From Vicinamibacterales bacterium (GTDB taxonomy: Bacteria; Acidobacteriota; Vicinamibacteria; Vicinamibacterales; G965249535), in contig OZ252241.1 of NCBI GenBank assembly GCA_965249535.1, positions 2,684,730 to 2,748,729 on the forward strand: DNA of 64,000 nucleotides, in the 5' to 3' direction. Every line of letters begins with the position of its first letter. Within the stretch, counting starts at the first letter, position 1. The translations under genes and the position numbers were made by a program. This document shows, piece by piece, positions 32,672 to 63,734 of the stretch. The notes beneath the pieces were generated by a model. The model was not told the origin of the DNA. It worked only from the letters and a program-made list of their open reading frames with translations, and ran no database searches.

Positions 32672-32900
32672 ATAGAGAAGTTTCTTCGGACAATTGCTAA
32701 CAGGAGCAACCTGTCAGGGCGATCGTACACTACTGGCTTCTGGCAGAAAAGCAATCTTGACTATGTCAAGCCTTGTTGTTCAATTTAGGGATTGACACAG
32801 TACCTTGACTGCTTATTGTTATGGCCCATAAAATCTGATATTCGACACTTTTAAAGAAAGTATCTTTGCTGTTGATAAACTTAGGAAGAAACGTTTTATT

Positions 32901-33662: not shown

Positions 33663-33727
33663 ACGGACGAGATGGCTATTCTAGGGATTGGCGAGAACTC
33701 AACATTCATATAGGTAAATGTTGTCTG

Positions 33728-35623: not shown

Positions 35624-35714
35624 TCTCTGAGGGTATAGTGGTTGTGAATGCCTTTGTGGGCCACGAATTCCGTTAGAAGTGAATTAAGATTTGATGAATC
35701 GTGTTCAAGATAAA

Positions 35715-36797: not shown

Positions 36798-37045
36798 CCG
36801 GTCTCACGCATAGTGTTCCATGCTCCTTCGAGACTGTTAGGGTAACCCAAGACCTTGAAATCCACAGATGCTTACCTTAAATCTTAATCGCTAGCTCAAT
36901 TATCTTCCCTCAACCAGAAGGATCACTAAATACCTTAACAACTAAACTATCAGAGTTGTTTATTAGGCCTGGGCACCGATACTAATCCTATTGCTTCGCT
37001 GGAGAATATTATCTTATTTTCTTGGGGAGAGAAATTCAAATTGTC

Positions 37046-38689: not shown

Positions 38690-38704
38690 TAGTTGAATTC
38701 AGAT

Positions 38705-40162: not shown

Positions 40163-40313
40163 CTAGTTTAGAAATATTTGTCCTAAGCAATCTTTAGTAG
40201 TGGATGCGGCCACAGAATTTCTCTTAGCAATGACGTTCGAGCAGTTAGAATACCAATTCTTGATTCATTGTGTTGGCCCGAGTAGTTAGCACATCTTGCA
40301 TGGAGCGATTATT

Positions 40314-41948: not shown

Positions 41949-42056
41949 AGTAGAGATATTCTACGATAGTGGAGCGTGATTATCCGGAAGTGTTAGTCAA
42001 TGGTGGTCATTACGCGCTGAGAGATTTACCGAATAAAACCTAGGGAGTTTTCGTAA

Positions 42057-42836: not shown

Positions 42837-42868
42837 TAGCATAGGAATTCAGCTGTGACTAATGCGTA

Positions 42869-43846
42869 CTATGTCCGCCTACTTCTGAGGTAGAGCCAAA
42901 GACCGGGCAGGCTTCCGATTAATCCCATCACGATAAAAAGAGTTGAAAGGGCAAAAGAGCGTTCATCTGGAACACCCACAGGCCGAAGAAGCCAGACGAT
43001 GGCTCCCTGAGGAAGACCCAACCCTGCGATCGAAAGGGGGAGCATGAAGACGAGAAGACCAATGGGCATAAAGAGTAAGTAGTAAGTGAATTTTACGCCG
43101 ATCCCCAATCCTTCTCCTAGACAATAAACTTCCAGTACACGAAATAGTTGAACCACGAGAGATAGAGTAAAGACAATTGCGATGGTTCCCATACGCCCAC
43201 GATAGCGACCGACGGCATCTCCAATCTCGAGGATTGAAGTGGCAAGTTGTGAACGCTGCCAGTGGTTGGGTAGCGTTAGTCGCAATAGGCGCTCTATCCA
43301 AAAAGCACTAATCAACGTAGCCATGAGTACGAATGTGAATACAAGTATGAGATTTAAGTAATCTAGATCAACTTCAGTCTGTTGGGTCCATATAAAGATC
43401 CCGGTCATTCCCAAACCGAGGAGAGCTAATACTCCAAGTAGTCTGTCAATAGCCACCGATGCGATTGAGTCTTGGGGATTGGCTGTGTGCTGTGCTAACC
43501 CATATGCACGTGCTGCGTCTGCCCCACCTGTAGGTAGGGCGCTTCCAATGAAAGCACTCGTGAGAAAAAGTCTGGTTGCCGATGAAATTGTAATTGGAAC
43601 ATGGCTGGCTCGTAAAAGTAAGAACCAGCGGAGAATCATAACTATCCGGGCGGATATATCCAGGGCAAGTGCCGGGATCAAATAAAGATTATCTGCATCA
43701 AGGAACGCACTACCGGCCTTCTGGAGGTCGATCTGTCTTGTAAGTACCAGTAGAATTGTTGAGCTCAACAATGCCCGAAACCAGACTGAACCTACAAATT
43801 TTATTTTCATGTGGTCGAAGTTGGACGATAGTTTGCTATGCGCCAA
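42869..43846 (-). CDS. Polytopic membrane protein, lysyl-PG-synthase-TM/'flippase-like' (UPF0104) family candidate
   Basis: 325 aa with about 8 TM helices, and a pattern (PTGGADAARAY, LFMPIGLLVFMLPLSIAGLG) reminiscent of the MprF N-terminal flippase-like domain family. No soluble domain. Confidence 0.55.
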   Translation of the reverse strand: MAHSKLSSNFDHMKIKFVGSVWFRALLSSTILLVLTRQIDLQKAGSAFLDADNLYLIPALALDISARIVMILRWFLLLRASHVPITISSATRLFLTSAFIGSALPTGGADAARAYGLAQHTANPQDSIASVAIDRLLGVLALLGLGMTGIFIWTQQTEVDLDYLNLILVFTFVLMATLISAFWIERLLRLTLPNHWQRSQLATSILEIGDAVGRYRGRMGTIAIVFTLSLVVQLFRVLEVYCLGEGLGIGVKFTYYLLFMPIGLLVFMLPLSIAGLGLPQGAIVWLLRPVGVPDERSFALSTLFIVMGLIGSLPGLWLYLRSRRT

Positions 43847-44085
43847 GCATTGTGGGACCGTTTATCCATCCTTCCACGTGAGAAGGATTAAGAGAACGAT
43901 CTGGTCCAAATAGCCGAGGATATCTTCTTCTCATAGTGTGCATTCTACCGCTGTCCTTAGTGTGTTCGGTAGCTTCCTGAAAATCAACTGGGCCGTGTGC
44001 TACGATGGAGGTGACTATAGTTTGTTCTAATACGCCGCTGCTACCATTGTTACTGCTGAGTTGGGTTGGATTCATGGTTTGAAAC

Positions 44086-44862
44086 TTGTATGGAGGCAAC
44101 TATTCGGTGTACGGATTTCTGAGAGTGGTGCCCCTAACGGGTAGCGTGATAATGGTTTTGTCGGTTGGCGCGAAGACTCAGCCGAGAGATTCCTGGGGAC
44201 GGATTTCTATCCACGTCAACGGAGGTTACGGAGTTCCCATAAAGGAGACCAAGAATCGCCATGAGTTCATAGGTTACGGTGAAGAAGGTAGTTTCGAAAG
44301 TATCCATGCCAGCGTTGGCACGGAATTGTTTGAGGGCGGAGGGAGCGTCCGCTTATGGCGTAATCTTACCATCGGTGCAACCTATTCAGAATTTAATAGG
44401 AGAGTTGAGACAGCCGTAACTGTCAACTTACCGCACCCATTCTTGTTGAATCAGTATCGTGAAGCGGGTCCTCAAACACTTGACTTACGACAGAGGCAAC
44501 GGACTACTCACATCCAATTTGTTATACCGATACCTGTGCCACTCTGGGAACGACTCGAATTCACTATGGCTGGTGGTCCATCTTTTATTAACATAACGCA
44601 AGGCGCTGTTACTAACATAGATGTGAGTGAGGTCGGTCCTCCTTATAACAGTGCAAAAGTTAACCTGATGGACTCTGAGGAGTATGTGGCTAATGGTTTT
44701 GGAGTGAACATTGGTTTTGATGTGACATGTATGTTGACAAACCACTTTGGCGCTGGCGTTTTTGTTCGTTTTATCATCGGATCGATTGACATGCCGGTGC
44801 CAGGCAGCAAGGTTTCCTTAGATGCGGTCCAAGCCGGTGCTGGTATCCGAGTTAGGTTCTAG
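44086..44862 (+). CDS. Putative outer-membrane beta-barrel protein
   Basis: It shows an alternating hydrophobic pattern and ends GAGIRVRF with a terminal aromatic residue, as in OMP beta-signals. The TTG start is uncertain and there is no clean signal peptide from this start. Confidence 0.45.
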   Translation: MYGGNYSVYGFLRVVPLTGSVIMVLSVGAKTQPRDSWGRISIHVNGGYGVPIKETKNRHEFIGYGEEGSFESIHASVGTELFEGGGSVRLWRNLTIGATYSEFNRRVETAVTVNLPHPFLLNQYREAGPQTLDLRQRQRTTHIQFVIPIPVPLWERLEFTMAGGPSFINITQGAVTNIDVSEVGPPYNSAKVNLMDSEEYVANGFGVNIGFDVTCMLTNHFGAGVFVRFIIGSIDMPVPGSKVSLDAVQAGAGIRVRF

Positions 44863-45050
44863 AAGAAACTTAGGCACATTTTACTTGACGATTCCCTAAA
44901 GGAGAATTAGTTCGAAGGCCATGCCTACCGAGATCTGGAACAGGATTAAGGTGCTTCGTTTGAGCAAGAAGGGAGCTGATACGCGTTGACCGCTCTTCGG
45001 TAAGACCGCTATAATTTTGTGGGTAGCGTGCACCCTCCTTCCTAACTATT

Positions 45051-46298
45051 GTGGCAATCAGTCCAGCGCGAATCCTGATGCTGGCTCCAGAGCCGTTTTT
45101 TGAGCCCCGCGGTACACCTTTCAGTGAGTACCATCGTATTAAAGTCTTGGGAGAACTCGGCTACCACATTGATCTTGTTACATATCCGTTCGGTGTCGAT
45201 GTTCAACTGCCAAATCTTCGGATCTTCCGCTCGTGGAGACCTCCTCTTATCCGTAGAGTTCCAATTGGACCGTCTGTCGTTAAAGTGTTACTGGATATGT
45301 TGCTAGCGGGAGTAGCGATTCGACTTATTCTCAGAGAGAAATACACAGCAATTCACTCGCATGAAGAAGCCGGCCTTTTGGGTATTTGGCTAGCCCGTTG
45401 GCTTGGAATTCCACATTTATACGACATGCATTCAAGTCTACCCGAGCAACTGAGTAATTTCAGATATACACGAATGGGCATCCTCCACCGGTTGTTTTTA
45501 TATAGTGAGCGCCAGATGATCCTGGGATCACGAGTGGTGATTGCGATCTGCCGAGAGCTACTAGATTTACTGACAGCGATGGGAGAAGGAGATCGTGTCA
45601 TTTTGATTGAGAACGTTATGGGTGGTGATTTTGACGAAGGAGTGTACAAAAGCAAAGTTGAAGTCCGCACAGAGTTGGGTATTTCCGCTTCTCAACCGTT
45701 GGTGCTTTATTCAGGGACGTTAGAAGCATATCAGGGACTGGATCTACTGATCTCGGCGGCGTCATTCCTCAGAAAAAGTCATCCCGATGCTAGAGTACTT
45801 GTAGTTGGAGGCGACCCGTCCCAAGTCGCGGCTGCTAAAAAGCAAGCAGACCAACAAGAGGTGAACATTGTTTTCACTGGGCAACGGCCGCCGTATGAGA
45901 TACCTCGCTTTATTGGAGCCTCTGACATCCTTGTGTCTCCTCGTGTTTCTGGTATGAATACTCCGTTAAAGATCTACTCATATTTACGTTCCGGCAAGCC
46001 AATCGTGGCAACTGATTTGGTCACGCACAGTCAGGTGCTTGATGAAAGCACAGCGATGCTTGTACCAGCTGAACCCAAGGCCTTCGCTCTCGGTATTGGA
46101 CAACTCATCGATCATCCCGAAGAACGGGAGCGCATTGCCTCTTCTGCTTTGGAGATGGCTGCTAGAAAGTATAGCCGGGAGAATTATGTAGCCAAGACTC
46201 GTAAAGCCTACGAGCGTTTATTGAGTGACGAGAATTCTTTAGAAGCCGAAACAACTGAGTCGGTCGAAATATCTCCAGGAGGCTGGAAGACTTCATGA
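45051..46298 (+). CDS. GT4-family (GT-B) glycosyltransferase
   Basis: 415 aa. The C-terminal half has LEAYQGLDLL and ILVSPRVSGMNTPLKIYSYLRSGKPIVATD, a GT1/GT4 E/x7/E-region equivalent. Confidence 0.8.
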   Translation: MAISPARILMLAPEPFFEPRGTPFSEYHRIKVLGELGYHIDLVTYPFGVDVQLPNLRIFRSWRPPLIRRVPIGPSVVKVLLDMLLAGVAIRLILREKYTAIHSHEEAGLLGIWLARWLGIPHLYDMHSSLPEQLSNFRYTRMGILHRLFLYSERQMILGSRVVIAICRELLDLLTAMGEGDRVILIENVMGGDFDEGVYKSKVEVRTELGISASQPLVLYSGTLEAYQGLDLLISAASFLRKSHPDARVLVVGGDPSQVAAAKKQADQQEVNIVFTGQRPPYEIPRFIGASDILVSPRVSGMNTPLKIYSYLRSGKPIVATDLVTHSQVLDESTAMLVPAEPKAFALGIGQLIDHPEERERIASSALEMAARKYSRENYVAKTRKAYERLLSDENSLEAETTESVEISPGGWKTS

Positions 46299-47287
46299 AA
46301 CTTCTCATCACAGGAGTGACGGGTTTTACTGGTGGTCACTTAGCTAAGCTGCTTGTAACGGCCGGACATGATGTCAGGGGTCTGGTTCGTCAGAGAAGTC
46401 TTAATAGTGTAGCGACTCGAAATCTTGAGGATAATCATGTGGAGGTGGTTGTCGGCGACCTCGTTGATCCCATCTCTTTGGATCGAGCGTGTGAAAGTGT
46501 TGAGCTCATTTATCACATTGCAGCAACATACAGACAAGCAGGTCAGCCGAATTCAGCTTACTGGGCAATCAACGTTCAAGGGACTGACAATCTTCTTGAG
46601 TCGGCTCGCAAAACTGGAGTGCGACGATTTGTCCATTGCAGTACTGGTGGAGTGCACGGGCACATAGATCGTCCACCTGCAAATGAAGATGCGCCACTTG
46701 CACCCGGAGATATTTATCAAAGAACGAAACTAGAGGCAGAGGTTCTTGCTCGACAGTTTGGTCAAGTTAATAGTCTTGACGTAGTAATAGCACGTCCAAT
46801 CGGCATTTATGGCCCTGGTGATACCAGATTTCTAAAAATGTTCCTAGGGATCGCTAAAGGGTGTTTTCCCATTCTTGGGTCAGGTGAAGTTTTTTATCAT
46901 TTGACTTACATTGAAGACCTAGTGGAAGGGCTTAAATTATGCGGAGAAAAAACCGGTGCAAGCGGGCGGACCTACATTTTGGCTGGTCCAGAGTATACGA
47001 CACTTAATAAGTTGGTTCAGTTGATTTCGGCCGAACTCGATGTACCAACTCCTAGGTGGCGATTCCCAGTGTGGCCGTTTTGGCTCGGTGGGGCACTATG
47101 CGAGCTATTGTGTGTACCGCTCAAACTCGAACCTCCGCTCTATCGGCGACGGGTTGATTTCTATACGAAGAGCCGAGCTTTTGATAGTTCGCGTGCAAAG
47201 CGTGAGCTGGGCTATGCTCCGAATGTGGATCTGAGAACAGGAATTAAGTTAACGAGTGATTGGTACCGTCAAAATGGTTGGTTGTGA
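46295..47287 (+). CDS. NAD-dependent sugar epimerase/dehydratase (extended SDR)
   Basis: Rossmann motif ITGVTGFTGGHL and catalytic YQRTK (YxxxK). Its start overlaps the upstream stop by 4 nt. Confidence 0.88.
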   Translation: MKLLITGVTGFTGGHLAKLLVTAGHDVRGLVRQRSLNSVATRNLEDNHVEVVVGDLVDPISLDRACESVELIYHIAATYRQAGQPNSAYWAINVQGTDNLLESARKTGVRRFVHCSTGGVHGHIDRPPANEDAPLAPGDIYQRTKLEAEVLARQFGQVNSLDVVIARPIGIYGPGDTRFLKMFLGIAKGCFPILGSGEVFYHLTYIEDLVEGLKLCGEKTGASGRTYILAGPEYTTLNKLVQLISAELDVPTPRWRFPVWPFWLGGALCELLCVPLKLEPPLYRRRVDFYTKSRAFDSSRAKRELGYAPNVDLRTGIKLTSDWYRQNGWL

Positions 47288-47290
47288 TTG

Positions 47291-48523
47291 ATGAGTAAGA
47301 TGAATCGCCTCAACATTGTTCATATCTGCGACCATCTCGGTTGGGCTGGTTCACGAATGCACGGTGTGAAACGCCTTTTTTCTTGGATGATTCCGAGGTT
47401 TGACACCAATCGATTCAATGTGACACTTATTAGTTTAAGGAAGAAAGATCTGTCTGAAGAGACACTCGAACAGTTCGGAATAGAAGTTACCTATTTAGGT
47501 AAATCGAAGTTTGATCCTATGACGCTACCGGCTCTGCTCGCAATGCTAGATCGTAAACGAGCAGACGTCTTGCACCTGCATGGATTTGGTGCGACCACGT
47601 TTGGCAGACTCGCGGCAGCTTGGCGAAGGTGGCCGGTTGTCTTACATGAACATTCAAACAGTGGAACACATGGATCGCGATCAGGTGTTACTAAAACACC
47701 GTGGTTTCAGAAGCTCGCTGATGCACTATTAGCACCTTATACCGATCTAGCGATCGCCGCATCAAAATCAACAGCTCGGTTCGTTGTGCAAGAGCGACGA
47801 ATACCAACTGTGAGAACCAAGGTTGTCTATCTCGGAGCACCACTTGAGGAATTCGGACAACCTTTGGAACCCGAGAGCGTTAAAAGAGCTCGTGATTTTC
47901 TCGGTATTACTCCAAAGACAACGGCCGTTGGTACCGTGACACGCTTGATGCCTCCAAAAGGGAATCGGTATTTGGTGGCGGCAGCTAGGTATGTTTTAGA
48001 GATAGAACCGAGTGCTAGGTTTTACATAGTGGGTGAGGGTGAGCTTCGATCCGTACTTGAGGCCCAAGCGCATGATCTTGGTGTGGCAGATCGAGTTACA
48101 TTCACTGGTTATACGCGCGAAGTGGCAGCAGCTTTTGCAGCACTGGACGTGGTAGTCTTTCCTTCGCTTTGGGAAGGGACGCCTCTAACGGCATTCGAGG
48201 CACTAGCGATGGGAAAACCAATCGTCGCATCTGCTACTGACGGGCTAACGGATATTCTCACTCACAATCATGACGCATTGCTTGTACCAAAGGCAGATAG
48301 TCGAGCGTTGGCGAAAGCGATATTGGAATTGTTACACGATTCTCAGTTACGGGAACGATTAGGTCGGCAGGCCCAAGTGACGAGCACCGTCTATGATGTC
48401 AGAGATTTTGTAAGGAAGATGGAGCGACTCTATACGATCTTGCATGAAACATCTCGTCGCACAAGTCGGGCTGGAGTACTTGAAGCCGATCTTGATTTCT
48501 TATCTAAGGGCATCCGGTTGTGA
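47291..48523 (+). CDS. GT4-family glycosyltransferase
   Basis: Contains VGTVTRLMPPKGNRYL, GEGELRS and VVFPSLWEGTPLTAFEALAMGKPIVAS. Confidence 0.85.
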   Translation: MSKMNRLNIVHICDHLGWAGSRMHGVKRLFSWMIPRFDTNRFNVTLISLRKKDLSEETLEQFGIEVTYLGKSKFDPMTLPALLAMLDRKRADVLHLHGFGATTFGRLAAAWRRWPVVLHEHSNSGTHGSRSGVTKTPWFQKLADALLAPYTDLAIAASKSTARFVVQERRIPTVRTKVVYLGAPLEEFGQPLEPESVKRARDFLGITPKTTAVGTVTRLMPPKGNRYLVAAARYVLEIEPSARFYIVGEGELRSVLEAQAHDLGVADRVTFTGYTREVAAAFAALDVVVFPSLWEGTPLTAFEALAMGKPIVASATDGLTDILTHNHDALLVPKADSRALAKAILELLHDSQLRERLGRQAQVTSTVYDVRDFVRKMERLYTILHETSRRTSRAGVLEADLDFLSKGIRL

Positions 48524-50487
48524 AGACATTGAGTTGGCAACATTCTGAGGCCACACGTGTTGGTTTCATTCTTTGTCTGATTCTCCTGGCTATACTCCTC
48601 GGCTTTGCCTTGTCTGTCGACTTACCAAAGTCTACCAGGGGATTTAGGAGTGACTCTGCAACCTACTATAGCCTCGCTCATAGTTTGGCCACTGATTATG
48701 ATTTTTATTTTGATCATTCGGACTTGGTACGGGTATGGGAAGAGTATCCGACGGGTCCTGAAGGAATCTTTCTTAAGCGTGGAAAAACTGTAAATTTTGA
48801 CTTCGATAGTACCTTTCCGTTCGTCCACTGGATCACTAGAGACGATCCACAAACAGATCGCTTGTATTACGGAAAAGCTTACATTTACCCGCTGGTCGCG
48901 GCCCCATTCGTTTGGCTATTTGGTACAAATGGGTTTCTCGTGCTTCACGTTATTATGTTAGTGTTGGGTGTAGCAGCGGCATATGCTTTTCTTGTTGCTC
49001 GCGCTCCACCAGCTGCTGCAGCTAGCTATGCCCTTGTATTTTTCTTTGCCTCGATGGTACCAGTTTATATAGTCTCGCTGACTCCAGATCTTTTTAACCT
49101 GTCTATCGCACTCTACGGACTCTTTCTGTGGAGTTACAAAAAGGTAGCACCATCCGTCTCGCATACTGGCACGTTAGCTGGACATTTCAACCGCTTCCTG
49201 AGGTCCAGGGGTTCTGATTATCTCGCCGTGATTCTTCTTGGAGTAGTTACGTTCTCAAAGCCAATATACATAACGCTGATCTTGCCGATACTTTTACATT
49301 CAGCCAGACAACGTCACTGGTTCCAAGGATTGTTTTTAGGTGCCATATTCGTGGCTACAGTAGGAGGATTGTTTGTCGTTAACGGAGTCGTTACTGGTGA
49401 ACTCAATTACCAGGGGGGTGATCGCAAGACATTCTATTCAGGGACCGGTGGGTATCCCTTCCAGACGTACGAAGCTACGTTTGATACTACAGGCCGGAGG
49501 CGTGCAACCGACACGGTACCTCTAGGGATTCTCGTCAATCGCGATGCGTTGCTAGAGGTATTTCCTCGTAATCTGGTGTATTTCTCCTTGGGGCGTCATA
49601 GTGGGCTTGTGCCTTACTTTTTCCCTGGGGTACTGAGCTTGTTGATGTTCTTGGGGGCAGGCAGTCGTCGGCAATCGTGGCAATGGCTGATTGGTGCAAC
49701 ACTCACGGTGTCGGTGATTGCTCTCCTACTTTACATGCCATTTACGTACTCGGGTGGTGGTGGGCCCGTTGGAAACCGCTACTTCATGGGGTACTACCCG
49801 TTATTATTGTTTCTTACGCCGCAACTCGGTTCATCGATTTCTTCGTTAGTTGCCGCGACCGTTGGAGGTCTGTTCACGGCTCAATTGGTGTTGAATCCGT
49901 TTTCTGCCACAGCCCAACCAGAGGACCATCCAAAGAGTGGTCCCTATCGCTTGTTACCGGTTGAGTTGTCGCTGGTCAACGATTTACCGGTGAATCTGAC
50001 GCGGTGGCGTACCAGACAACCTCTACTCGGCAACCCGCCTCTACTGGCCTATTTTCTCGATGACAATTCTTATAGTGTAGAGCAGGGTGGGTTTTGGCTT
50101 AGAGGTCGGTCACGTTCAGAGATCATCGTGCGCGCACGAACTCGACAACGGGCCGAGGGGTCTCAGGAATCTCTACGTATAAGGCAACTGAATGTAGAGA
50201 TTAGCACAGGCGAGATTGGAAATCGTGTAACCGTTGAAACTGGAGCTGAGAAATTGGAGGTCCAACTGGGCCGATATAGGAGTCAAGTGATAAGCGTGAA
50301 GGTACCGAAGGGTTTTCCGTATCGACCAGGAGTTGCTCCAACCAACTACGTTTACTTGGTGTCGGTTTCTTGTATAAGCGGCTTTCCTGAAAAAGGATCG
50401 TTTCCGATGCCGTCCTTTAATTCTAATGGGCGGGGTAACCGATTCCTCGGTGCTTTGATAAAGATAACCCCGATCTATGAGTCGTAG
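48520..50487 (+). CDS. Large polytopic membrane protein, GT-C-fold (ArnT/PMT-like) glycosyltransferase candidate
   Basis: 655 aa with more than 10 TM helices. The first extracytoplasmic loop reads FRSDSATYYSLAHSLATDYDF (acidic/aromatic, like GT-C loop 1). A C-terminal soluble domain of about 170 aa follows. The start overlaps the upstream stop by 4 nt. Confidence 0.55.
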   Translation: MKTLSWQHSEATRVGFILCLILLAILLGFALSVDLPKSTRGFRSDSATYYSLAHSLATDYDFYFDHSDLVRVWEEYPTGPEGIFLKRGKTVNFDFDSTFPFVHWITRDDPQTDRLYYGKAYIYPLVAAPFVWLFGTNGFLVLHVIMLVLGVAAAYAFLVARAPPAAAASYALVFFFASMVPVYIVSLTPDLFNLSIALYGLFLWSYKKVAPSVSHTGTLAGHFNRFLRSRGSDYLAVILLGVVTFSKPIYITLILPILLHSARQRHWFQGLFLGAIFVATVGGLFVVNGVVTGELNYQGGDRKTFYSGTGGYPFQTYEATFDTTGRRRATDTVPLGILVNRDALLEVFPRNLVYFSLGRHSGLVPYFFPGVLSLLMFLGAGSRRQSWQWLIGATLTVSVIALLLYMPFTYSGGGGPVGNRYFMGYYPLLLFLTPQLGSSISSLVAATVGGLFTAQLVLNPFSATAQPEDHPKSGPYRLLPVELSLVNDLPVNLTRWRTRQPLLGNPPLLAYFLDDNSYSVEQGGFWLRGRSRSEIIVRARTRQRAEGSQESLRIRQLNVEISTGEIGNRVTVETGAEKLEVQLGRYRSQVISVKVPKGFPYRPGVAPTNYVYLVSVSCISGFPEKGSFPMPSFNSNGRGNRFLGALIKITPIYES

Positions 50488-50615
50488 GTACTTGGTATGT
50501 TTTATGCGTTTGAATTGGTTGACTGAGAATTTAGGACTGAGGATGTCCCTGTTTTCTCTTGTTATGAGAGAAAATTTGTTAAAACGATCGCAGATGTTGG
50601 TAGTAATCTTTTATC

Positions 50616-51659
50616 TTGGCTCGCATAGCTGTCTTGACATCGCATCCGCCGTTTGCTGAAGGTGGACATCTAGTTATCGCTCATGGTTTGGTGGAAGCAC
50701 TTCGTTCAGCTGGACACCATGCTATGGTCGTGCTGACACCACAGAATCGCTTTGGCCGACGGGCTTCAGCCTACCTTGCGACGTGGTTAACAGATATAGG
50801 AATAAGTTATGATGGAAAGCCAATAGATCAGGTGATTAGTCTTCGCTATCCCAGTTACGCAATTCGACATCCAAACCATGTTTGCTGGCTCAACCATCGG
50901 ATGAGAGAGTACTACGATCAGTGGGAATCATTTCGTGAACGGCTTTCATGGAAGGGATTATTAAAGGAACGAGTCAGACGCTCTCTGGTTCATGCCGTTG
51001 ACCGGCAATTATTAACGCGCAATGTTCACCGTCTTTTTGCCCAATCCAAAACCATCCAGGCACGTCTCGTGCGATGGGGCAAGATTCCCTCTGAGGTGTT
51101 ATATCCACCTCCACCTTCACGTCGTTACCATTGTGATTCATTTGGCGACTACCTTTTTGTTGTCTCACGCTTGACACCCCTCAAACGCGTTGACCTCGTT
51201 ATTGAAGCGCTTAGGCGACCTGAGGCTGCTGGAATTCATTGTGTAATTGCTGGTGATGGTGAGTTCCGATCAGTTCTAGCGGAAAGAGTTCTTACGTACG
51301 GGCTCAGTGACCGAGTGAAACTTGTTGGCCTGATTAATGATGATGAACTGGTTAATCACTTAGGTCGTTGTCGAGCGGTTTGTTTTCCACCATATTCAGA
51401 AGATTATGGTTTGGTTACGGTTGAAGCCTTCGCCTCACAAAAGCCGGTCATTACCTGCGTGGATAGCGGTGGACCTGCTGAATTGGTCATCGATCACGAG
51501 AACGGCCTAGTTTGTGAGCCTGCAGCCGAATCTTTAGCACTTGCTATGCGAACGCTGATGGATGACCGTGACATGGCTGAACAGATGGGAGAAGTTGGTC
51601 ATCGACAGGTGTCAGAAATGACTTGGCAACGGACTCTAGAGAAGTTGGTCCTCGTGTAA
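50616..51659 (+). CDS. GT4-family glycosyltransferase
   Basis: Contains VSRLTPLKRVDL, AGDGEFRS and SEDYGLVTVEAFASQKPVITCVDSGGPAELV. TTG start. Confidence 0.8.
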   Translation: MARIAVLTSHPPFAEGGHLVIAHGLVEALRSAGHHAMVVLTPQNRFGRRASAYLATWLTDIGISYDGKPIDQVISLRYPSYAIRHPNHVCWLNHRMREYYDQWESFRERLSWKGLLKERVRRSLVHAVDRQLLTRNVHRLFAQSKTIQARLVRWGKIPSEVLYPPPPSRRYHCDSFGDYLFVVSRLTPLKRVDLVIEALRRPEAAGIHCVIAGDGEFRSVLAERVLTYGLSDRVKLVGLINDDELVNHLGRCRAVCFPPYSEDYGLVTVEAFASQKPVITCVDSGGPAELVIDHENGLVCEPAAESLALAMRTLMDDRDMAEQMGEVGHRQVSEMTWQRTLEKLVLV

Positions 51660-55247: not shown

Positions 55248-55432
55248 ATTGAGATCCTCGTAATTTTCAAGATAGGTGTATGACCTTATGATTACTTTGA
55301 TTGATGCTGTCCGACTGATCGACGAGTAATGAGAAGCCATAGCAGGGGTGGTTTCAAAAATATTTTTGTGAATCTTTGAAAGTTCTTGCTGACTTGAAAT
55401 TACCAATATATTTTGGCATGTGGTTTTATCGG

Positions 55433-56461
55433 ATGAAGATGTTTCTTGGTAGGTACGTACTACTGGAGTTTTGTATCCTTTTGATTAGTTTAACTATTGC
55501 GGGCTGCGATAAGTCTTCTCCGACGGCTCCGTCACCGGTTGTTCGGGTGGAAGGACCTGGCTTCTTAACCCAACTAAGTTGTCCAGCTGATGTCACACTG
55601 ACGTCCGACAACGGCCCGATGGTTGTGACGTTCTCTCAGCCGACACTTAGTGACGAAACCGAGGTGACGAAGAGTTCTTGTGATCCGGCTTCAGGATCGG
55701 TATTTCCTTTCGGTGTTTCGCAGGTGATCTGTTCTGTAACTGACGCGGAAACCGTGGCAACTAGCTGCGCGTTCTCAGTAATGGTTTTACCACCAGGTAT
55801 GCTAGGTGAGACCAAATTTGTGGCATTTGGCGACAGCATCACAAAAGGAGTTCTCGGTTTAACGTTTATGGATTTAGTGAATCCAGAAAACTCGTATCCC
55901 ACACAGCTTGAATACATGCTTAGGGATATGTACCCCGACCAGACTATTACGATGGTCAACGCAGGGAGAGGTGGAGAGACCTCATCTGAGGGGAGATCAA
56001 GAATCTCGCAAGTGTTGAGCAAGCATAATCCAGGCGTTTTGATGGTTCTTGAAGGCATCAATAATCTGTTAGTGATTGGCGCTCCGCAGGCGGCACAGGA
56101 TCTTAGGTCCATTGCTCAAAGAGGAAAGGCCAGGGGAGCGGAAGTGTTACTTGCAACCTTGACGCCAATTGGTGATAAGAAAGAAAAGAAGCGCCCAGGG
56201 TTAAGAGATACGGTCAGAGACTTAAATCGTGAGATTCGTCAAATTGCACGGCAATTGGGCATTGGTCCAGCTGTGGATCTTTTTCAAGCTTTCGAAGGTA
56301 ATCCGTCGCTACTTGGCGATGACGGGGTGCACCCAACGGTCGAAGGGTACTATGTGATGGCTGAGGAGTTTTTCCACGCCATCGTATCAAGGGTTGAGAT
56401 TAGCCGAGGGCAATCGTCTCCGTTTGGGTTGTTTTCACCGCCTGTGTTCGCTCCTGAGTAA
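55433..56461 (+). CDS. Lipoprotein with N-terminal HYR-like Ig domain fused to an SGNH/GDSL hydrolase
   Basis: ATG 55433 gives a lipobox LTIAGC. The HYR-like pattern is CPADVTLTSDNGPMVVTFSQPTLSD...CDPASGSVFPFGVSQVICSVTD...CAFSV. SGNH block I is FVAFGDSITKG and block V is DGVHPT. Confidence 0.75.
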   Translation: MKMFLGRYVLLEFCILLISLTIAGCDKSSPTAPSPVVRVEGPGFLTQLSCPADVTLTSDNGPMVVTFSQPTLSDETEVTKSSCDPASGSVFPFGVSQVICSVTDAETVATSCAFSVMVLPPGMLGETKFVAFGDSITKGVLGLTFMDLVNPENSYPTQLEYMLRDMYPDQTITMVNAGRGGETSSEGRSRISQVLSKHNPGVLMVLEGINNLLVIGAPQAAQDLRSIAQRGKARGAEVLLATLTPIGDKKEKKRPGLRDTVRDLNREIRQIARQLGIGPAVDLFQAFEGNPSLLGDDGVHPTVEGYYVMAEEFFHAIVSRVEISRGQSSPFGLFSPPVFAPE

Positions 56462-56464
56462 TTT

Positions 56465-57886
56465 TTATTGAATGTAACCGAGTGTACGGAGATTGTCCAA
56501 CGCTTCTTTACTGAGTGCATCGTAACGTTCAGAAGAGTCTCGAGTGGCCGTACGCTGAATAGAACGCCTACTCCTCAGTAGTTGTAAGAGTTCGTTAGCC
56601 CGTGCTGGTTCGTCGGCGTAAAGATTAAAGGATTCCTCCGGATCACTCGCTAGATTGTACAACTGGAAGCGACTCTCGCGACTCTTGTTTGAGTCTCCGG
56701 TTCTTGAGATCAGCTTCCAATCACCAGACCTTATGCCCCAGTACCGGCGACTAGCAAAGAAGATATAAGGTCTATGGTTTGGTATTTCACCACGGTGCGT
56801 TGATTCGAGTGACTGACCTGCCAAAGGGTAAGCAGCACGGTCGCTATCAAAGCGTGGATCCTGAATGCCCACCATTTCGAGGATGGTCGGTGTTATATCA
56901 ATCAGTCCAACTGGTGTCGTGATTCTCTTTGGGGTAGGTTCCTTGTTTGCCGCAGTCACTATTAAAGGTACCCGAACGTGGGGTTCAGAGATAGTGGGAC
57001 CGTGTTTGAAATAAACATCACCTTCTCCAAGACCTTCTCCATGGTCAGACGTAATGATGATCAAAGTGTTATCCAAGGCTACTCTATTTTTCAACACGCT
57101 TAGTACTTTTCCGATCTCATTATCGGTGAATGCGACCTCACCATCGTACTGGGCGATGTAGTAGGCAAGGCGATGCTCTCCCTTGATGTATACACCTGGT
57201 CGAATTCCACCAATGTATCCAGATGTTTGTGGTAGTCGAACAGTGTCATCGAAGTATGCGTCGTTCATGAATTCCGCAGCAAATGTCTCTGGTGGACTGT
57301 AAGGTCCATGCGGGTTGACGTAGTGGAGCCACATGAAGAAACGTTCATTGGTCTCAGCAAAATTTTCAAGGTGTTCAACGGCGGTTTCAGTGATTAGGTG
57401 AGTTCGATCTATTTCATTGTCTTTCTCTTCCCAGGTTTCACGATAGACTTGAAATCCTTGCCCGTAGCCAAGCTCTTCTGAAAGGTTTGCGTTATCAACA
57501 GCGGCCACAGTTGTCCAACCCTGTTCGGCCAAGAGTTCCGCGACTGTATCCATCTCGTCTGGGACTGACCATCTCCTAATCCGCTGAGTGAACATCCCTG
57601 TGAGCATTGATGCAACACTAGGACCTGTTCTAGGGATTGGTGCGTAGGCTGCTTCGAAAACCCAGCTTGTTTTAGCAAGTTTGTCTATGTTTGGTGATGT
57701 TTCACGCAAATAGCCATAAGTACCAAGATGATCTGGACGCAGTGCGTCAATTGAAATTAATACCACGTTCTTGATCAGGGGCTGGGCATTGTCTAGCTCG
57801 AGTTCTCGTGATTCGTCTGAAACAGTACAATCAGTCTGAAGAACTAGGGAAAGTGTCAATATCAAAAGGGGATGTAGATATTTCAT
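56465..57886 (-). CDS. Alkaline-phosphatase-superfamily 'sulfatase-like' enzyme with Thr at the nucleophile position (paralog of 31022..32671)
   Basis: Signal peptide present. It has VVLISIDALRPDHLG and TSPNIDKLAKTSWVF. The nucleophile region reads YAPIPRTGPSVASMLTG. SDHGEGLGE is present and the protein ends LRTLGYIQ. Its start overlaps the CotH stop by 4 nt. Confidence 0.8.
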   Translation of the reverse strand: MKYLHPLLILTLSLVLQTDCTVSDESRELELDNAQPLIKNVVLISIDALRPDHLGTYGYLRETSPNIDKLAKTSWVFEAAYAPIPRTGPSVASMLTGMFTQRIRRWSVPDEMDTVAELLAEQGWTTVAAVDNANLSEELGYGQGFQVYRETWEEKDNEIDRTHLITETAVEHLENFAETNERFFMWLHYVNPHGPYSPPETFAAEFMNDAYFDDTVRLPQTSGYIGGIRPGVYIKGEHRLAYYIAQYDGEVAFTDNEIGKVLSVLKNRVALDNTLIIITSDHGEGLGEGDVYFKHGPTISEPHVRVPLIVTAANKEPTPKRITTPVGLIDITPTILEMVGIQDPRFDSDRAAYPLAGQSLESTHRGEIPNHRPYIFFASRRYWGIRSGDWKLISRTGDSNKSRESRFQLYNLASDPEESFNLYADEPARANELLQLLRSRRSIQRTATRDSSERYDALSKEALDNLRTLGYIQ

Positions 57887-59451
57887 GACGATGCTTCTCT
57901 TATAGAGAGACTGACACGATTGTTCTTGGGTGAATCAGCGATAGATGGTTCGAGTTGAACAGCAGGTGCTGTTTTATCAGATAGAAATACCGCTTTGATC
58001 ACTGTTTTCGATCTTATTCGATGATGTAGGCGTGAAGCCGTGACAACGTGGTCATTAACTACCCAGTGCGAGAAATCATGCCTTTCTTTTGTAAGTTCAA
58101 CAGTGATTCCCATGCCACTGAAGTAAGACCCTGAAAAACCTGCCGGCTCTGAGTAGCCGTCGATAGAAAAGACGACACCAGGGGGACCTTCTACCTGACA
58201 TAGATAACTAGGTCCAGCCTTGACGTAGCGTGCAAGGAGTGTCCGCACTCTGTCTGGTCTCATTTTGAGAAACTGTTCAAGGTTCTTGAGATAGTCAACT
58301 TGTTGAACGCCGTATCGTTCTGCTACTCGTTGGTAGTAATCGAATCGAGCTTTGAGAAACGACGACGTGACCTTGTGATTTAATGCGTCCACAAACATTC
58401 GCATCAAGTAACGGCCAAAGTCAGGATCTTCTGAGAGCAGACGAGTTATGATTTGTGACTCTATTGGGCGTCGACCTAGAGTGGTCCTAAAGGTATTGTG
58501 CTGCCAGGGTTCTCTGGATTGCCGGTAAACGTCCATAAAGCTATGGTCCATATCCCAGTTGACTAAGAACCAACGGGCATCTGAACGAGTGTTGTCAAGA
58601 AACATCAACGCTTGGAAGGGATCAGTTGTTGCGCAGAAGACAATCGAAATAAACCAACGTGTCAGATTCTCAAGATCAAAAATCTTGTCCACATCAGCCA
58701 TCGTAAGGGGAGAGATGTTTCTTACGGTACGGTGCAACTGTCTTCTTATTTTTCGATCTTGTAAAAGGAAATCATCATGTCCATATCTAGTCTTTAGAAA
58801 CTCTTTGCGGACGTGTTCGGTGAGAACATAGACACCCTGATACTGTCCGTTCAAGAAAAATCTGACCGGTTGTGTGTATGGTGTAATACCACCGAATTGC
58901 CGAGCGATCTCGTATGCCAAGGGATTTACAAGATGCCACCATTGTTTTGTTCCATCCTGACGAAGATCATTGTGCACGACCAGTCGGGTGATGGGATCGC
59001 TTTTGCCCTCAAACAGTACGCCTGGCATGAACTGACGCGGACTATAGTCTTTTCTGAAATATAGTCGGAAGCTTTGCACAGGAGAACCAATTCGGCTCTT
59101 ACCTCCATGAATTCGTAGACCCGCACTGCCAGCGAAGATTAACCGACCACGATCGAAATAAGACACTGTGGTCGGATTTTCCCACTGACGTCCCTTGTTC
59201 ATTGGATTGGCAAGGATTCCAGTTTCTGGATTGTTGAGTTGTTCCACCGGAGTGTACACGGAAAGTAACGACCCATCTTTCAAGATTTCTTCTTCTGGAA
59301 TTACCAGACTACTTGGCAAGCGAGCCGGAGTACGTTGCACAGCGATTTGCAGACCGGCCAAAGGGCTCACTCGTTCGAAGACGAGCCCAACAGCGAGCAA
59401 CAGGGTAGGAACACCGATTAGAAGGAAGATTCTCAGTCGATTTCTCGACAT
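57883..59451 (-). CDS. CotH-family atypical kinase-like protein, N-terminally membrane-anchored
   Basis: 522 aa. MSRNRLRIFLLIGVPTLLLAVGLVF forms a signal anchor. CotH-like blocks include LRIHGGKSRIGSPVQSFRLYF, NPLAYEIARQFGGITPYTQPVRFFLNGQYQGVYVLTEHV and FLVNWDMDHSF. Confidence 0.75.
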   Translation of the reverse strand: MSRNRLRIFLLIGVPTLLLAVGLVFERVSPLAGLQIAVQRTPARLPSSLVIPEEEILKDGSLLSVYTPVEQLNNPETGILANPMNKGRQWENPTTVSYFDRGRLIFAGSAGLRIHGGKSRIGSPVQSFRLYFRKDYSPRQFMPGVLFEGKSDPITRLVVHNDLRQDGTKQWWHLVNPLAYEIARQFGGITPYTQPVRFFLNGQYQGVYVLTEHVRKEFLKTRYGHDDFLLQDRKIRRQLHRTVRNISPLTMADVDKIFDLENLTRWFISIVFCATTDPFQALMFLDNTRSDARWFLVNWDMDHSFMDVYRQSREPWQHNTFRTTLGRRPIESQIITRLLSEDPDFGRYLMRMFVDALNHKVTSSFLKARFDYYQRVAERYGVQQVDYLKNLEQFLKMRPDRVRTLLARYVKAGPSYLCQVEGPPGVVFSIDGYSEPAGFSGSYFSGMGITVELTKERHDFSHWVVNDHVVTASRLHHRIRSKTVIKAVFLSDKTAPAVQLEPSIADSPKNNRVSLSIREASS

Positions 59452-59458
59452 AGCAGGT

Positions 59459-60166
59459 TTAAATTGGTACCGACCGGTTAAAGAAAATGTTAGTGGTAGA
59501 GCCTTCGTATTTCTTGTCCAGCTCTGCTTGTAGACTCAGCAAGACATCAGGAGAAGATGAGCGAAATGCGTATGAAATCACACTGGAGTCTTCATTTCTT
59601 GAGAGGCTCTCAAGGCGCCCTTTTTTGATTCGAACATTTAGGAGTTCGGTTATCTCTCGGCTGAGCAGGTCGTTTTTACGATGTGGAAACGACACAATCA
59701 CCAGTCCCCCATCTCTGGGTCCAGCCAGAACACTCGTAGCGAGCTGTTGAGCGAATAACGCGACAACAGCAATCATCAGCAGGAGCGCGAGGAACGCTAG
59801 TTTGAATGTGGCACAGGCAAGAGCTGAGGCGATCACGAGCATGATGAAACCGATTTCCTCTGGTTCTTTGATCGGTGTCCTAAAGCGCACGATAGATAAT
59901 GCGCCTAGCAACCCAAGTGATAAAGGGAGAGAGAATTGAATGGCGATAAAAATTGCAGTAATGGAAATTCCAAGGAGAGGAAAGGCCCGATGTGCTTCGC
60001 TACCAGTCGAGTGGCTTGAATAAAAGTAGCGATATAGCCAGGCAATAAACAGTGAACTCGCCAGGGACAACAGTAGGAGTAAAAAAAGTCCACCCAGTCC
60101 GACCTCGCTCATACCCTGAAGACCACGACCGGATAAGATTCTAAAAACGTTGTCTAGTTCTTGCAT
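59459..60166 (-). CDS. DUF4956-family polytopic membrane protein
   Basis: 235 aa with four to five TM helices and the hallmark LGALSIVRFRTPIKEPEEIGFI. A C-terminal soluble domain of about 90 aa follows. Confidence 0.75.
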   Translation of the reverse strand: MQELDNVFRILSGRGLQGMSEVGLGGLFLLLLLSLASSLFIAWLYRYFYSSHSTGSEAHRAFPLLGISITAIFIAIQFSLPLSLGLLGALSIVRFRTPIKEPEEIGFIMLVIASALACATFKLAFLALLLMIAVVALFAQQLATSVLAGPRDGGLVIVSFPHRKNDLLSREITELLNVRIKKGRLESLSRNEDSSVISYAFRSSSPDVLLSLQAELDKKYEGSTTNIFFNRSVPI

Positions 60167-60195
60167 TTCTGGTTATCCTGGACAAGGGTGCGTTT

Positions 60196-60915
60196 CTAGT
60201 TAGCAATTGTAACCGTGTGATCATAGCAGGCGAAGTACTTGGAAAACGACGTTTTCCGTCCGCCCAAATCAATTAGGTTTCGTAACATCTGTGGCAATCC
60301 GACAACATTACCCTTCACCTCAACTACCGCGGTACTTAATTGAAGAGGATTTGGTGCAAGGAGAACCTCTCGGTTAACGATCGGGGCTGAGATATTGGAA
60401 TCGAGGCACACTCTCAGGTTTGTAAGAGTTTCAATAAATCGATTCCGCCGATAACGAACGAGAAGTACCGGGCGGATGAGACTCGGTACCGATATTCCCT
60501 CCTCGCGTAGGCGTAAAGGAATTTGTCGAAGCGTGGAGTGATGGAGTGGAGTTCTCGTTAACCAGTCACCGGAGTACGGAGTTTCGATACGCACTTTGTG
60601 ACGACGCTGACCGATCCGAAACTTTGCCTCAAGAAAGGAGCTGTTTACTGAGTTATTCTGACCTTCGTACCATCTGAGCCGGATCTTAATTTTCAAGTAG
60701 TCACTGTCTATCTTTTCTCGCAAGCAGTCTAACGCCGGTGTATCGTAGTAGATGCTATAAACGAGACCAGTAGGGAAGCCGGGATCAGGGATACAGATGG
60801 TCTGAAGCCATTTGTGGGCAGCTGTAACGTCACGACCATCGAGCGTAAACTTGATTTCGCGGTCGAATTCCTGTCTTGAGGAAAAACCCAGAGTTTTTTC
60901 TGACAGTGCGCTCAT
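60196..60915 (-). CDS. VTC-domain (triphosphate-tunnel / polyphosphate-polymerase-like) protein
   Basis: Start taken at MSALSEK. The alternating basic/acidic beta-strand pattern of tunnel enzymes is present: EIKFTL, SIYYDT, KIKIRLRWY, FLEAKFR, VRYRRNRF, RVCLDSNI, VVEVKG and SFSKYF. No TM helix or signal peptide. Confidence 0.75.
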   Translation of the reverse strand: MSALSEKTLGFSSRQEFDREIKFTLDGRDVTAAHKWLQTICIPDPGFPTGLVYSIYYDTPALDCLREKIDSDYLKIKIRLRWYEGQNNSVNSSFLEAKFRIGQRRHKVRIETPYSGDWLTRTPLHHSTLRQIPLRLREEGISVPSLIRPVLLVRYRRNRFIETLTNLRVCLDSNISAPIVNREVLLAPNPLQLSTAVVEVKGNVVGLPQMLRNLIDLGGRKTSFSKYFACYDHTVTIAN

Positions 60916-61063
60916 TGTTGCTATCACAATAACACTATAATACCCTCTGATACACGCAACTATCACAAGAGAATTCTTCTGGACACTGGGTTCACTAGGT
61001 AAGTTCTTGCCATCGATGAGCCATTTCGTTCTTCTCTCATCGACATCGCAGTCGCGGCATCAG

Positions 61064-62642: not shown

Positions 62643-63194
62643 CTATGGATCTCTGAGTACTATGTCAATTTCTCTAATGACTTTGCGCACCATCTCAGAT
62701 AGTCCCTTCGCCAAGTTTCGTGCTGAGATGTAGTCGCTCTGACTGAGTGCAGTGTGAGCTTCATGCATTGCAGCTTCTACGGCACTACGGGTCATTCGAC
62801 TTTGCGCCATTTGGCGTACAGGGATCCTGGCAGCCTGAGCCGCCACGAGTCTCCGGTCGAGTTCTTCAAGCTCAAGAGCGGCAGCGTCGAGAATTTGTTC
62901 CACTTCACGTCGAACCAGTACCTTTTGCTTGGCAGCCTGCTCAACGGACTTCTGTGCCTCTTCACGTGCTTGCAGTGCGTAGTTCAAGCCTAGCCGGTAG
63001 TCTGTGTTTTCAACTGCCTTTTTAGCGTTCTCAAGAATTGCAATGGCCGCAGCATACTCGTCTGGTGCGTATTGGTCGGCACCGGCTCTCCCGGCGGCAT
63101 CGATAGCGTCCTGGGCCTGGTTCATCTCTTTCGTTGGAGGTGTAGCACATCCGATGAAACAGAGCACGAATGTGAAGGTCAAAAAGCCATACAT
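62643..63194 (-). CDS. DUF4398-like helical lipoprotein
   Basis: ATG 63194 gives MYGFLTFTFVLCFIGC (lipobox). It continues MNQAQDAIDAAGRAGADQYAPDEYAAAIAILENAKKAV, typical of DUF4398 helical repeats. Confidence 0.65.
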   Translation of the reverse strand: MYGFLTFTFVLCFIGCATPPTKEMNQAQDAIDAAGRAGADQYAPDEYAAAIAILENAKKAVENTDYRLGLNYALQAREEAQKSVEQAAKQKVLVRREVEQILDAAALELEELDRRLVAAQAARIPVRQMAQSRMTRSAVEAAMHEAHTALSQSDYISARNLAKGLSEMVRKVIREIDIVLRDP

Positions 63195-63734
63195 GGTGCG
63201 TGAACTAAAGTGCGTGGGAGAGAGTATACGCGAGTTCTGCGCTTCTGAGCAGACGATAGCTTGTAGTGTCACTAGAGCAGGAATCATAGAGCTAAACAAA
63301 AGTATTTAGGCACCGTATTACAACAGAGTATATGTGTATTCTATATTTCTCATGCAGGATGACACAAAGTTAAACTCAAGAGAATATGCAGTTCAGATCT
63401 AAACATGGCTTAGGAAGGAATTTGTGGGGCGACCGACGGAGCAAGTAACCAAAGGGAATACTAGGTGCTGGACAATTGATGTGCAATATATTTCGAAAAA
63501 TCTGAAGTTGTAATTCCATTAAGAGCCCATGAAATCTGGCTAAGTGTCAGATGATGAGCGGGAAGAGCAACTCTCTGCAGCGAGTCTGTTGCTTATGGTA
63601 CGATTAAACGTTGCGTCACAAACGACTGGCCATACGAAACATTAAATAGTTTGGATACTGTTCGTGTGTCATGAAGCGCGGGTGAAGTCTAGCCGAATAT
63701 AGGGTGTTGATCACCGAACAAGGTTTTATCAACT

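Follow-up and report, generated by a model that had tools for sequence, protein, structure and literature searches.

A widespread VTC–DUF4956–CotH gene module translationally coupled to a threonine-type alkaline-phosphatase-superfamily enzyme in an acidobacterium: a candidate envelope phospho-modification system

The window analysed here is a 64,000-nucleotide stretch of contig OZ252241.1 (positions 2,684,730 to 2,748,729 of the forward strand, assembly GCA_965249535.1) from a Vicinamibacterales bacterium of the Acidobacteriota. It contains a cassette of four tightly packed genes encoding a VTC-domain protein, a DUF4956 membrane protein, a CotH-family kinase-like protein and a sulfatase-fold protein of the alkaline-phosphatase (AP) superfamily (Table 1). 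The cassette represents, in an acidobacterium, a module of three genes with a wide distribution, consisting of VTC, DUF4956 and an exported CotH protein, and the module is here translationally coupled to an exported AP enzyme with a threonine nucleophile, which is paired with an SGNH esterase lipoprotein. The four domain identities had been proposed in an original prediction made without database searches, and all four proteins score above the curated Pfam gathering cut-offs against which matches were judged.

As read in the sequence, the VTC stop codon is separated from the DUF4956 ATG by 29 nt and the DUF4956 stop codon from the CotH ATG by 7 nt, and the CotH stop codon overlaps the start of the AP enzyme by 4 nt (ATGA), exactly the spacing that had been predicted to make the four genes one unit. 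This packing far exceeds chance expectation. A 99%-identical metagenome contig has the identical arrangement of seven genes and the same gene calls, with the CotH/AP ATGA overlap retained. The gene calls on the near-identical contig start VTC at the ATG at 60915, in agreement with the family alignment, and this ATG is most likely the true start. Scans for promoters and terminators were uninformative, with 4 promoter-like sites against 9 expected.

Table 1. Coordinates of the cassette and of neighbouring features in the window
Feature	Position	Strand	Remarks
SGNH (GDSL) esterase lipoprotein with HYR domain	55376..56461	plus	Pfam Lipase_GDSL_2, E = 1.9e-24; HYR, E = 1.4e-4
Sulfatase-fold (AP superfamily) protein, 473 aa	56465..57886	minus	Pfam Sulfatase
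CotH-family kinase-like protein, 522 aa	57883..59451	minus	Pfam CotH
DUF4956 membrane protein, 235 aa	59459..60166	minus	Pfam DUF4956
VTC-domain protein, 239 aa from ATG	60196..60915	minus	5' end at 60966 if an upstream GTG is used
Lipoprotein-like protein, 519 aa	61064..62623	minus	148 nt upstream of VTC
DUF4398 lipoprotein	62643..63299	minus	Pfam E = 3.5e-7; lipobox FIGC; 19 nt upstream of the 519-aa gene
Surface-glycan biosynthesis/modification region	28126..51659		Pfam scans; outside the operon

The VTC protein matches the Pfam VTC model, and not CYTH, with 70.1 bits (cut-off 23, E = 2.7e-19). A single-sequence search of the PDB gave no match; a profile built from 37 sequences matches Vtc4 in the PDB (HMMER, E = 1.5e-5, alignment to 3g3q and 8i6v). 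In this alignment R79, R81, K98, K107, Y155, R157, R168, E199 and K201 of the window protein fall on Vtc4 residues R264, R266, K281, K294, Y359, R361, R373, E426 and K428, respectively. All of them are invariant among the 37 homologues except R168, whose conservation is at least 90%. Outside the alignment, K22 would correspond to Vtc4 K200 and S225/K226 to Vtc4 S457/K458. Residues R264, R266 and E426 are those that were mutated to inactivate the yeast VTC complex (PMC9911596).

An AlphaFold2 model of the VTC protein was obtained with a predicted local distance difference test (pLDDT) score of 88, and its top 13 Foldseek matches are all Vtc4, Vtc3 or Vtc2 (E = 2.8e-12 to 1.2e-9), with Vtc4 structures best (E = 2.8e-12), followed by Vtc3 and Vtc2. 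YgiF and the other tunnel hydrolases and cyclases rank below these by at least four orders of magnitude in E-value. Sequence identity with Vtc4 is 16–19%. According to the model, the VTC protein is a soluble Vtc4-type triphosphate-tunnel enzyme with an eight-stranded fold, and from its conserved residues it is a putative polyphosphate polymerase. The placement in the tunnel-enzyme fold made in the original prediction thus stands on the Foldseek matches and the conserved aligned residues, with neither the fold nor the basic tunnel residues lost. Hydropathy analysis revealed no transmembrane (TM)-like segment in the VTC protein, and neither an SPX domain nor a Vtc1-like protein is among the Pfam matches.

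The DUF4956 protein matches its Pfam family with 57.3 bits (cut-off 30.6, E = 2.1e-15), a family with 3,881 representatives at 50% identity (E ≤ 1e-3), and its hydropathy profile contains several TM-like segments. In the AlphaFold2 model, TM-length helices span residues 24–49, 58–76, 80–95, 102–119 and 123–147, followed at residues 154–229 by a C-terminal domain of ferredoxin-like beta-alpha-beta-beta-alpha-beta (ACT/PII-like) topology. Residues ~60–120, which include VRFRTPIKEPEE, are almost invariant among homologues that are 51–71% identical overall, and in the stretch QFSLPLSLGLLGALSIVRFRTPIKEPEE nearly every position is invariant. The near-invariant region holds four basic residues (R60, R94, R96 and K100). 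From the Lys/Arg count and the model, we infer an N-out, C-in topology, in which all four of these residues would face the cytoplasm, as would the charged loop and the ACT-like domain. Foldseek comparison with the PDB returned weak matches to the C-terminal domain alone (E ≥ 1.4e-3), namely to EF-G domain IV, NikR, the PII-like protein SbtB, ACT domains and the MgtC C-terminal domain (2lqj). The structural likeness to yeast VTC that the original prediction had anticipated is therefore split, since the VTC protein resembles Vtc4 but DUF4956 shows no detectable similarity to a Vtc1-type channel.

A relationship of DUF4956 with MgtC was considered and rejected, because profile comparison with Escherichia coli YhiD by hhalign gave a probability of 3% and there was no Pfam MgtC match at E ≤ 10. 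DUF4956 shares with MgtC/YhiD its size, the approximately five TM helices followed by a cytoplasmic ACT-like domain and the weak fold match to 2lqj, but lacks significant profile similarity.

Several composite sequences were encountered among the DUF4956 homologues. P0491 (663 aa) and P0515 (283 aa) join the N-terminal TM core of DUF4956 to a C-terminal ABC-permease half (BPD_transp_1), P0491 bearing a PMT_2 domain in addition; the junctions lie at similar points, but these proteins are probably assembly chimeras and were not used as evidence. In two Vicinamibacterales metagenome-assembled genomes derived from long reads, VTC and DUF4956 appear fused, as one open reading frame (ORF) with both domains in L030 (9266–10696) and as a long overlapping ORF in L043 (9182–10621). 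In both fusion ORFs the C-terminal half of VTC reads out of frame, and the fusions were rejected as evidence of physical coupling, being frameshift artefacts.

The CotH protein matches Pfam CotH with 93.5 bits (cut-off 23.8, E = 2.3e-26), and a phmmer comparison with Bacillus cereus CotH (5jd9) covers the catalytic core (E = 1.6e-4). Residues D277 and D300 align with the Asp residues of the NFDG and WDYD motifs of 5jd9 with an identical spacing of 23 residues, and correspond to D228 and D251 of Bacillus subtilis CotH, in which the substitutions D228Q and D251A each abolish activity (PMC7821199). Of 75 cassette CotH proteins, at least 93% retain the two catalytic Asp residues. The window protein has, as had been predicted, a single N-terminal hydrophobic segment (residues 6–24 by hydropathy) behind the sequence MSRNRLR, and such a segment is found in 67 of the 75 cassette proteins. 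Given this basic sequence in front of the segment, the catalytic body is expected on the outer side of the cytoplasmic membrane. Compared with the Bacillus proteins (5jd9, 5jda), the window protein belongs to the same Pfam family and retains both catalytic Asp residues and their spacing (PMC7821199), but it is very dissimilar in sequence, carries an N-terminal export signal or anchor and a C-terminal extension of ~100 aa, and would act in a compartment free of ATP. How CotH proteins function extracellularly is a recognised puzzle (PMC12774918).

The AP enzyme matches Pfam Sulfatase with 160.1 bits (cut-off 25, E = 1e-46), and its best relatives in the PDB are formylglycine S1 sulfatases (E = 1e-26). 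PDB alignments place T-G-P-S-V (Thr87) where the sulfatases have C/S-x-P-x-R, and the assignment as a formylglycine sulfatase was rejected, because formylglycine cannot form from Thr87 in place of Cys or Ser. A threonine nucleophile had been part of the original prediction; Thr87 is present in 120 of the 120 best homologues, which never have Cys or Ser at this position, and the metal ligands D47 and D281/H282 are likewise retained throughout the 120, each position at 95% or more. The N-terminus contains a short hydrophobic stretch ending at Cys20, at a position where most orthologues have a clear lipobox and the window protein a degenerate one (LQTDC). This signal- or lipoprotein-type N-terminus takes the place of a polytopic membrane domain, which the protein lacks. 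It scores below the NCBIfam cut-offs for EptA, MCR, CptA and YejM (best 44.6 bits against 500). The protein is therefore classed as a Thr-type AP-superfamily protein with a predicted export signal and, by these scores, falls outside the EptA/LtaS families. With LtaS, EptA/MCR, OpgB and BcsG it shares the sulfatase fold, the Thr nucleophile, the Asp and Asp-His ligands and the extracytoplasmic location, but it differs from the LtaS/EptA type in lacking the polytopic N-terminus and in being far nearer to the formylglycine S1 sulfatases.

The complementary topology that had been proposed for the four products is supported by hydropathy and N-terminal segments: the VTC protein is predicted to be cytoplasmic, DUF4956 polytopic, and CotH and the AP enzyme exported, the last by its hydrophobic N-terminus and the lipoboxes of most orthologues. 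Export segments are predicted in both CotH and the AP enzyme, so that a cytoplasmic placement was not seen for either.

The conservation of the cassette was examined by scanning a DUF4956 alignment against one genome per species, in which at least 568 genomes carry a motif-bearing DUF4956. Synteny was counted in the best 80 loci of these, with ORFs annotated by purpose-built profiles, and a subset of 52 loci has at least 5 kb of sequence on either side. The best 80 loci belong to Acidobacteriota, Desulfobacterota, Spirochaetota, Planctomycetota, Kiritimatiellia and Verrucomicrobiota, Flavobacteriaceae, Oligoflexia and Bdellovibrionales, and Polyangiaceae, and the closest acidobacterial DUF4956 in the scan is that of Acidobacteria bacterium UBA2161 (69% identity). 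VTC lies immediately upstream of DUF4956 on the same strand in 71 of 74 loci. CotH follows DUF4956 immediately in 59 of 75 loci and lies within 10 kb of it in 70 of 75, and all three genes are present in 47 of the 52-locus subset. The co-conservation of VTC, DUF4956 and CotH called for by the original prediction is thus strong. The median distance between DUF4956 and CotH is 0 nt, with 52 of 56 distances no greater than 10 nt, and the two genes are usually translationally coupled. Because the VTC protein has no TM segment and has DUF4956 as its neighbour in 71 of 74 loci, it would need a membrane partner.

In some relatives the cassette is disrupted by insertion sequence (IS) elements: IS genes of the rve and HTH families separate DUF4956 from CotH, or replace CotH, in L006–L008 (9828–11077) and L009 (11130–14349). 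At L001 (6415–14215), several CotH ORFs surround one VTC and DUF4956 pair with a transposase inserted between them, a pattern suggesting that the kinase gene has been duplicated and rearranged.

Thr-type AP enzymes accompany the cassette in more than one form. Window-type enzymes (lipoproteins of ~475 aa) occur in L004, L005, L012 and L019. A second form, type B, is an LtaS-like protein of ~690 aa with a polytopic N-terminal domain of five TM helices, as in LtaS, and is encoded directly 5' of VTC in nine Vicinamibacterales species. Further Thr-type enzymes are found in one Flavobacteriaceae and one Polyangiaceae locus (L048 and L072). The sulfatase-family neighbours of the cassette are mostly of the Thr type, with true sulfatases of the Cys type in 3 loci. 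Thr-type AP enzymes have therefore been recruited more than once, with differing architectures. The SGNH esterase (lipobox TIAGC) is encoded convergently with the operon, 3 nt from the stop codon of the AP gene. A convergent Sulfatase/GDSL pair recurs in L004, L005, L010, L012 and L092, and 22 of the 52 loci have a GDSL gene no more than 10 kb away. The SGNH esterase thus recurs as a partner both of the AP enzyme and of the cassette.

The trio of genes had been noticed before. A cotH/polyphosphate-polymerase/DUF4956 trio has been described as contiguous with Gram-positive pel loci in Streptococcus, Clostridium and Bifidobacterium (10.1101/768473, PMC7112168). In Streptococcus intermedius, deletion of SIR_1592 (DUF4956) or SIR_1594 (CotH) results in reduced Pel and aggregation; the authors described DUF4956 as an MgtC-like TM domain with an ACT domain, suggested a role in phosphate metabolism or regulation, and did not find the DUF4956/VTC/CotH synteny beyond Pel loci (PMC12345266). 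By contrast, 47 of the 52 loci counted here carry the trio, and the four of that set that were screened for pel genes, through their annotated genes (L010, L003, L004 and L006), contain none, which argues against a synteny confined to Pel. We take the label "tubulin/FtsZ, GTPase", noted by Pfam for some DUF4956 proteins, to mark a candidate DUF4956 gene in the NELoc-2 locus of Clostridium perfringens. That locus encodes VTC, "tubulin/FtsZ, GTPase" and CotH in the matching order (PMC2879425).

The window copy resembles the trios of the pel loci and NELoc-2 in the adjacency of the three families, the presence of exopolysaccharide (EPS) genes and a predicted secreted CotH (PMC12345266, PMC2879425). 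It differs in belonging to a diderm acidobacterium, in that Pel families are absent both from the genes called up to 10 kb from the cassette and from the scanned window genes, and in having a Thr-type AP lipoprotein and an SGNH lipoprotein in place of DUF4832. The novelty claimed in the original prediction is overstated: the trio has been described beside pel loci and its deletion phenotypes are known, although the literature search turned up no biochemical study of a bacterial VTC protein, of DUF4956 or of the donor that exported CotH proteins use. What is new here is the occurrence in a diderm together with the coupling to a Thr-type AP enzyme, the trio itself having already been noticed and being biochemically uncharacterised.

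Upstream of VTC lies the gene for a 519-aa protein, which had no Pfam, NCBIfam or PDB sequence match and is conserved in near-identical contigs only. A single weak BLASTP pair (E = 0.009) links it to the PD40/Tricorn_N protein encoded directly upstream of VTC in L003, and the 519-aa protein may be a beta-propeller of divergent sequence that partners the cassette. Like the GDSL and DUF4398 proteins, it has a lipobox-like N-terminus. The surface-glycan region lies 5–28 kb from the cassette and encodes an IMPase family protein, DedA/VTT, GT2, a Thr-type sulfatase-like lipoprotein, Hexapep, Asn synthase, two AlgX-like SGNH proteins and MBOAT (an O-acetylation set), DAO/DAO_C, a methyltransferase, LPG_synthase_TM, three GT4s and an epimerase. 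The sulfatase-like lipoprotein of this region is a second sulfatase-fold protein of 549 aa (31022–32671, minus strand; lipobox FLMAC) with the Thr nucleophile motif PITGPSH, encoded between the GT2 and Hexapep acyltransferase genes.

Many of the families of this region directly flank the cassette in L001, L003 and L006–L008. In relatives, the cassettes are embedded among GT4, GT2, GDSL, carbamoyltransferase, DAO/DAO_C and LPG_synthase_TM genes, and likewise amid Hexapep, Asn synthase, DedA and IMPase genes; clustering of neighbouring ORFs from 81 loci recovered GT2 (31), DedA/VTT (20), epimerase (17) and IMPase (12). Because glycan genes surround the cassette and its neighbours have lipobox-like N-termini, the module belongs to envelope and surface-glycan biology. 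Between the glycan region and the cassette, two overlapping short plus-strand ORFs (110 and 102 aa; 51788–52395), the first with a PP-loop-like GGKDS motif and the second with CxxC, look like a split tRNA-thiolation (TtcA-like) gene. They had no Pfam match at E ≤ 0.001, and two small genes are also called in the matching part of the near-identical contig L010.

As an overall explanation, to which we give somewhat less than an even chance, we propose that the cassette is a conserved envelope phospho-modification module, the reading with the best support. It would most likely act, outside the cytoplasmic membrane, on a polysaccharide or glycoconjugate of the cell surface, and perhaps also on envelope proteins. 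A more specific proposal, which we regard as possible but doubtful, is that of a bacterial VTC-type, PPK-independent polyphosphate synthase with DUF4956-aided export, in which polyphosphate serves as the CotH donor and is processed by the Thr-type AP enzyme. This scheme is plausible and the likeliest mechanism for the module: VTC would dock on the cytoplasmic face of DUF4956 and build polyphosphate from ATP, and the chain, or phosphoryl groups, would cross to the periplasmic side through DUF4956 or with its help. CotH would then take polyphosphate as phosphoryl donor in the ATP-free compartment, and the AP enzyme would transfer, trim or remove phospho groups through a phospho-Thr intermediate. 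We infer every functional step here, including the polyphosphate product, the transport role of DUF4956, the CotH donor and the substrate. The polyphosphate-export proposal, whose logic is coherent, was made because a kinase that is exported with its active site intact finds no ATP outside the cytoplasm, and because an apparently competent polymerase without an anchor is obligately linked to a highly conserved membrane protein.

The yeast VTC complex provides the nearest precedent, sharing with the bacterial protein the Pfam family, the tunnel fold, the counterparts of R264, R266, K281, R361, R373 and E426, and a cytoplasmic catalytic domain obliged to work at a membrane (PMC9911596). It also differs considerably: the bacterial VTC protein lacks an SPX domain and any TM helix, a three-TM subunit of the Vtc1 kind is missing, the partner is instead DUF4956 with its five TM helices, ACT-like domain and no detectable channel similarity, and the destination would be the periplasm or cell surface where that of yeast is the vacuole.

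Several points weigh against polyphosphate export. The literature reveals no polyphosphate synthesis experiment for any bacterial VTC protein, and tunnel enzymes span many chemistries (triphosphatase, cyclase and RNA triphosphatase). To our knowledge, ATP is the only donor demonstrated for CotH. The TM part of DUF4956 matched no Vtc1/3/4 channel chain and no transporter when compared by Foldseek with the PDB. The model of this protein is moderately confident (pLDDT 74) and suggests a conserved membrane protein of MgtC-like layout, with pore formation not evident and a channel identity unsupported. That the 80 loci share the DUF4956 motif is in part a circular finding, as the motif itself was used to find them. 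The AP enzyme is missing from most cassettes, with a sulfatase-family gene within 10 kb in 15 of the 52 loci; its 58%-identical orthologue pairs with GDSL at a site where the nearest 8 kb hold no cassette, and Thr-type relatives of 40% identity lie apart from the cassette.

Alternatively, VTC and DUF4956 could form a cytoplasm-facing, MgtC-like sensor of polyphosphate, energy or phosphate, whose ACT-like domain binds a small ligand and which tunes the production of a surface polysaccharide; no polyphosphate would then cross the membrane, and CotH would be a protein kinase with a regulatory or structural role and with exported proteins as its targets. This would fit the architecture of DUF4956 (five TM helices and an ACT/PII/MgtC-C-like domain), the suggestion of phosphate metabolism or regulation by the S. 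intermedius authors (PMC12345266) and the location of cassettes in or near EPS loci. We nevertheless consider it unlikely, since the YhiD profile comparison gave a probability of just 3%, the phosphoryl donor of an exported intact kinase is left unexplained, and the near-invariant TM core of DUF4956 resembles a catalytic or transport core more than a sensor anchor. Less probable still is that VTC is a tunnel-fold hydrolase or cyclase, such as a triphosphatase or polyphosphatase, which gives a phosphate or nucleotide signal and resembles Vtc4 in triphosphate binding alone. The fold is indeed common to YgiF, archaeal triphosphatases, CyaB-type cyclases and thiamine triphosphatase in the Foldseek list, and identity with Vtc4 is merely 16–19%; however, the Vtc proteins outrank all of these enzymes by the margin given above, Pfam VTC rather than CYTH is matched, and the counterparts of the Vtc4 polymerase residues are conserved.

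The place of the AP enzyme in the unit has also to be weighed. With its convergent SGNH esterase it might form a separate two-gene unit, perhaps directed at a phospho- or acyl-decorated glycan, so that the overlap with CotH reflects local compaction; we judge this a real, though not a likely, alternative. The pair occurs in L092 with no cassette within 8 kb and, in L004, L005 and L012, at 2.5–3 kb from CotH with intervening genes; most cassettes have no sulfatase-family neighbour, and the glycan locus of the window contains a second Thr-type paralogue. On the other hand, Thr-type enzymes of other architecture abut VTC in the nine Vicinamibacterales species and are found in L048 and L072, Cys-type true sulfatases are rare near cassettes, the 49%-identical orthologue of the AP enzyme adjoins a CotH gene, and the ATGA overlap is kept in the near-identical contig. 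Because of the count of 15 in 52 loci and the mixed reverse look-ups (the 58%, 49% and 40% identical relatives), the fourth gene is an accessory that recurs in particular lineages and does not belong to the core of the module. The original prediction had counted it as part of the operon, which is right for its coupling with CotH here but not for the module at large.

In the current view, VTC-type polymerases are the eukaryotic route to polyphosphate and PPK the bacterial one (PMC12526157), and a working bacterial VTC enzyme would, if the proposal is true, alter this eukaryote-only picture. A 2026 preprint describes extracellular polyphosphate in the Bacillus cereus group that is independent of PPK1/PPK2 and of unexplained source, in bacteria that have no VTC4 homologue according to its authors (PMC13484657). 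The cassette would not explain that case; if the proposal is true, non-PPK routes do exist in bacteria. Exported CotH "kinases" are also found in cellulosomes, biofilm loci and fungi, where their working without ATP is unexplained (PMC12774918). The cassette may explain how surface material is phosphorylated at the ATP-free cell exterior, and would then represent an ATP-independent extracytoplasmic system. It has cultured carriers in Desulfopila sp. IMCC35008, Desulfobulbus alkaliphilus DSM 24258, S. intermedius and C. perfringens, and is linked with biofilm and aggregation phenotypes (PMC12345266). The cassette, spread well beyond one group, offers a testable answer to the questions of non-PPK polyphosphate and of extracellular CotH proteins.

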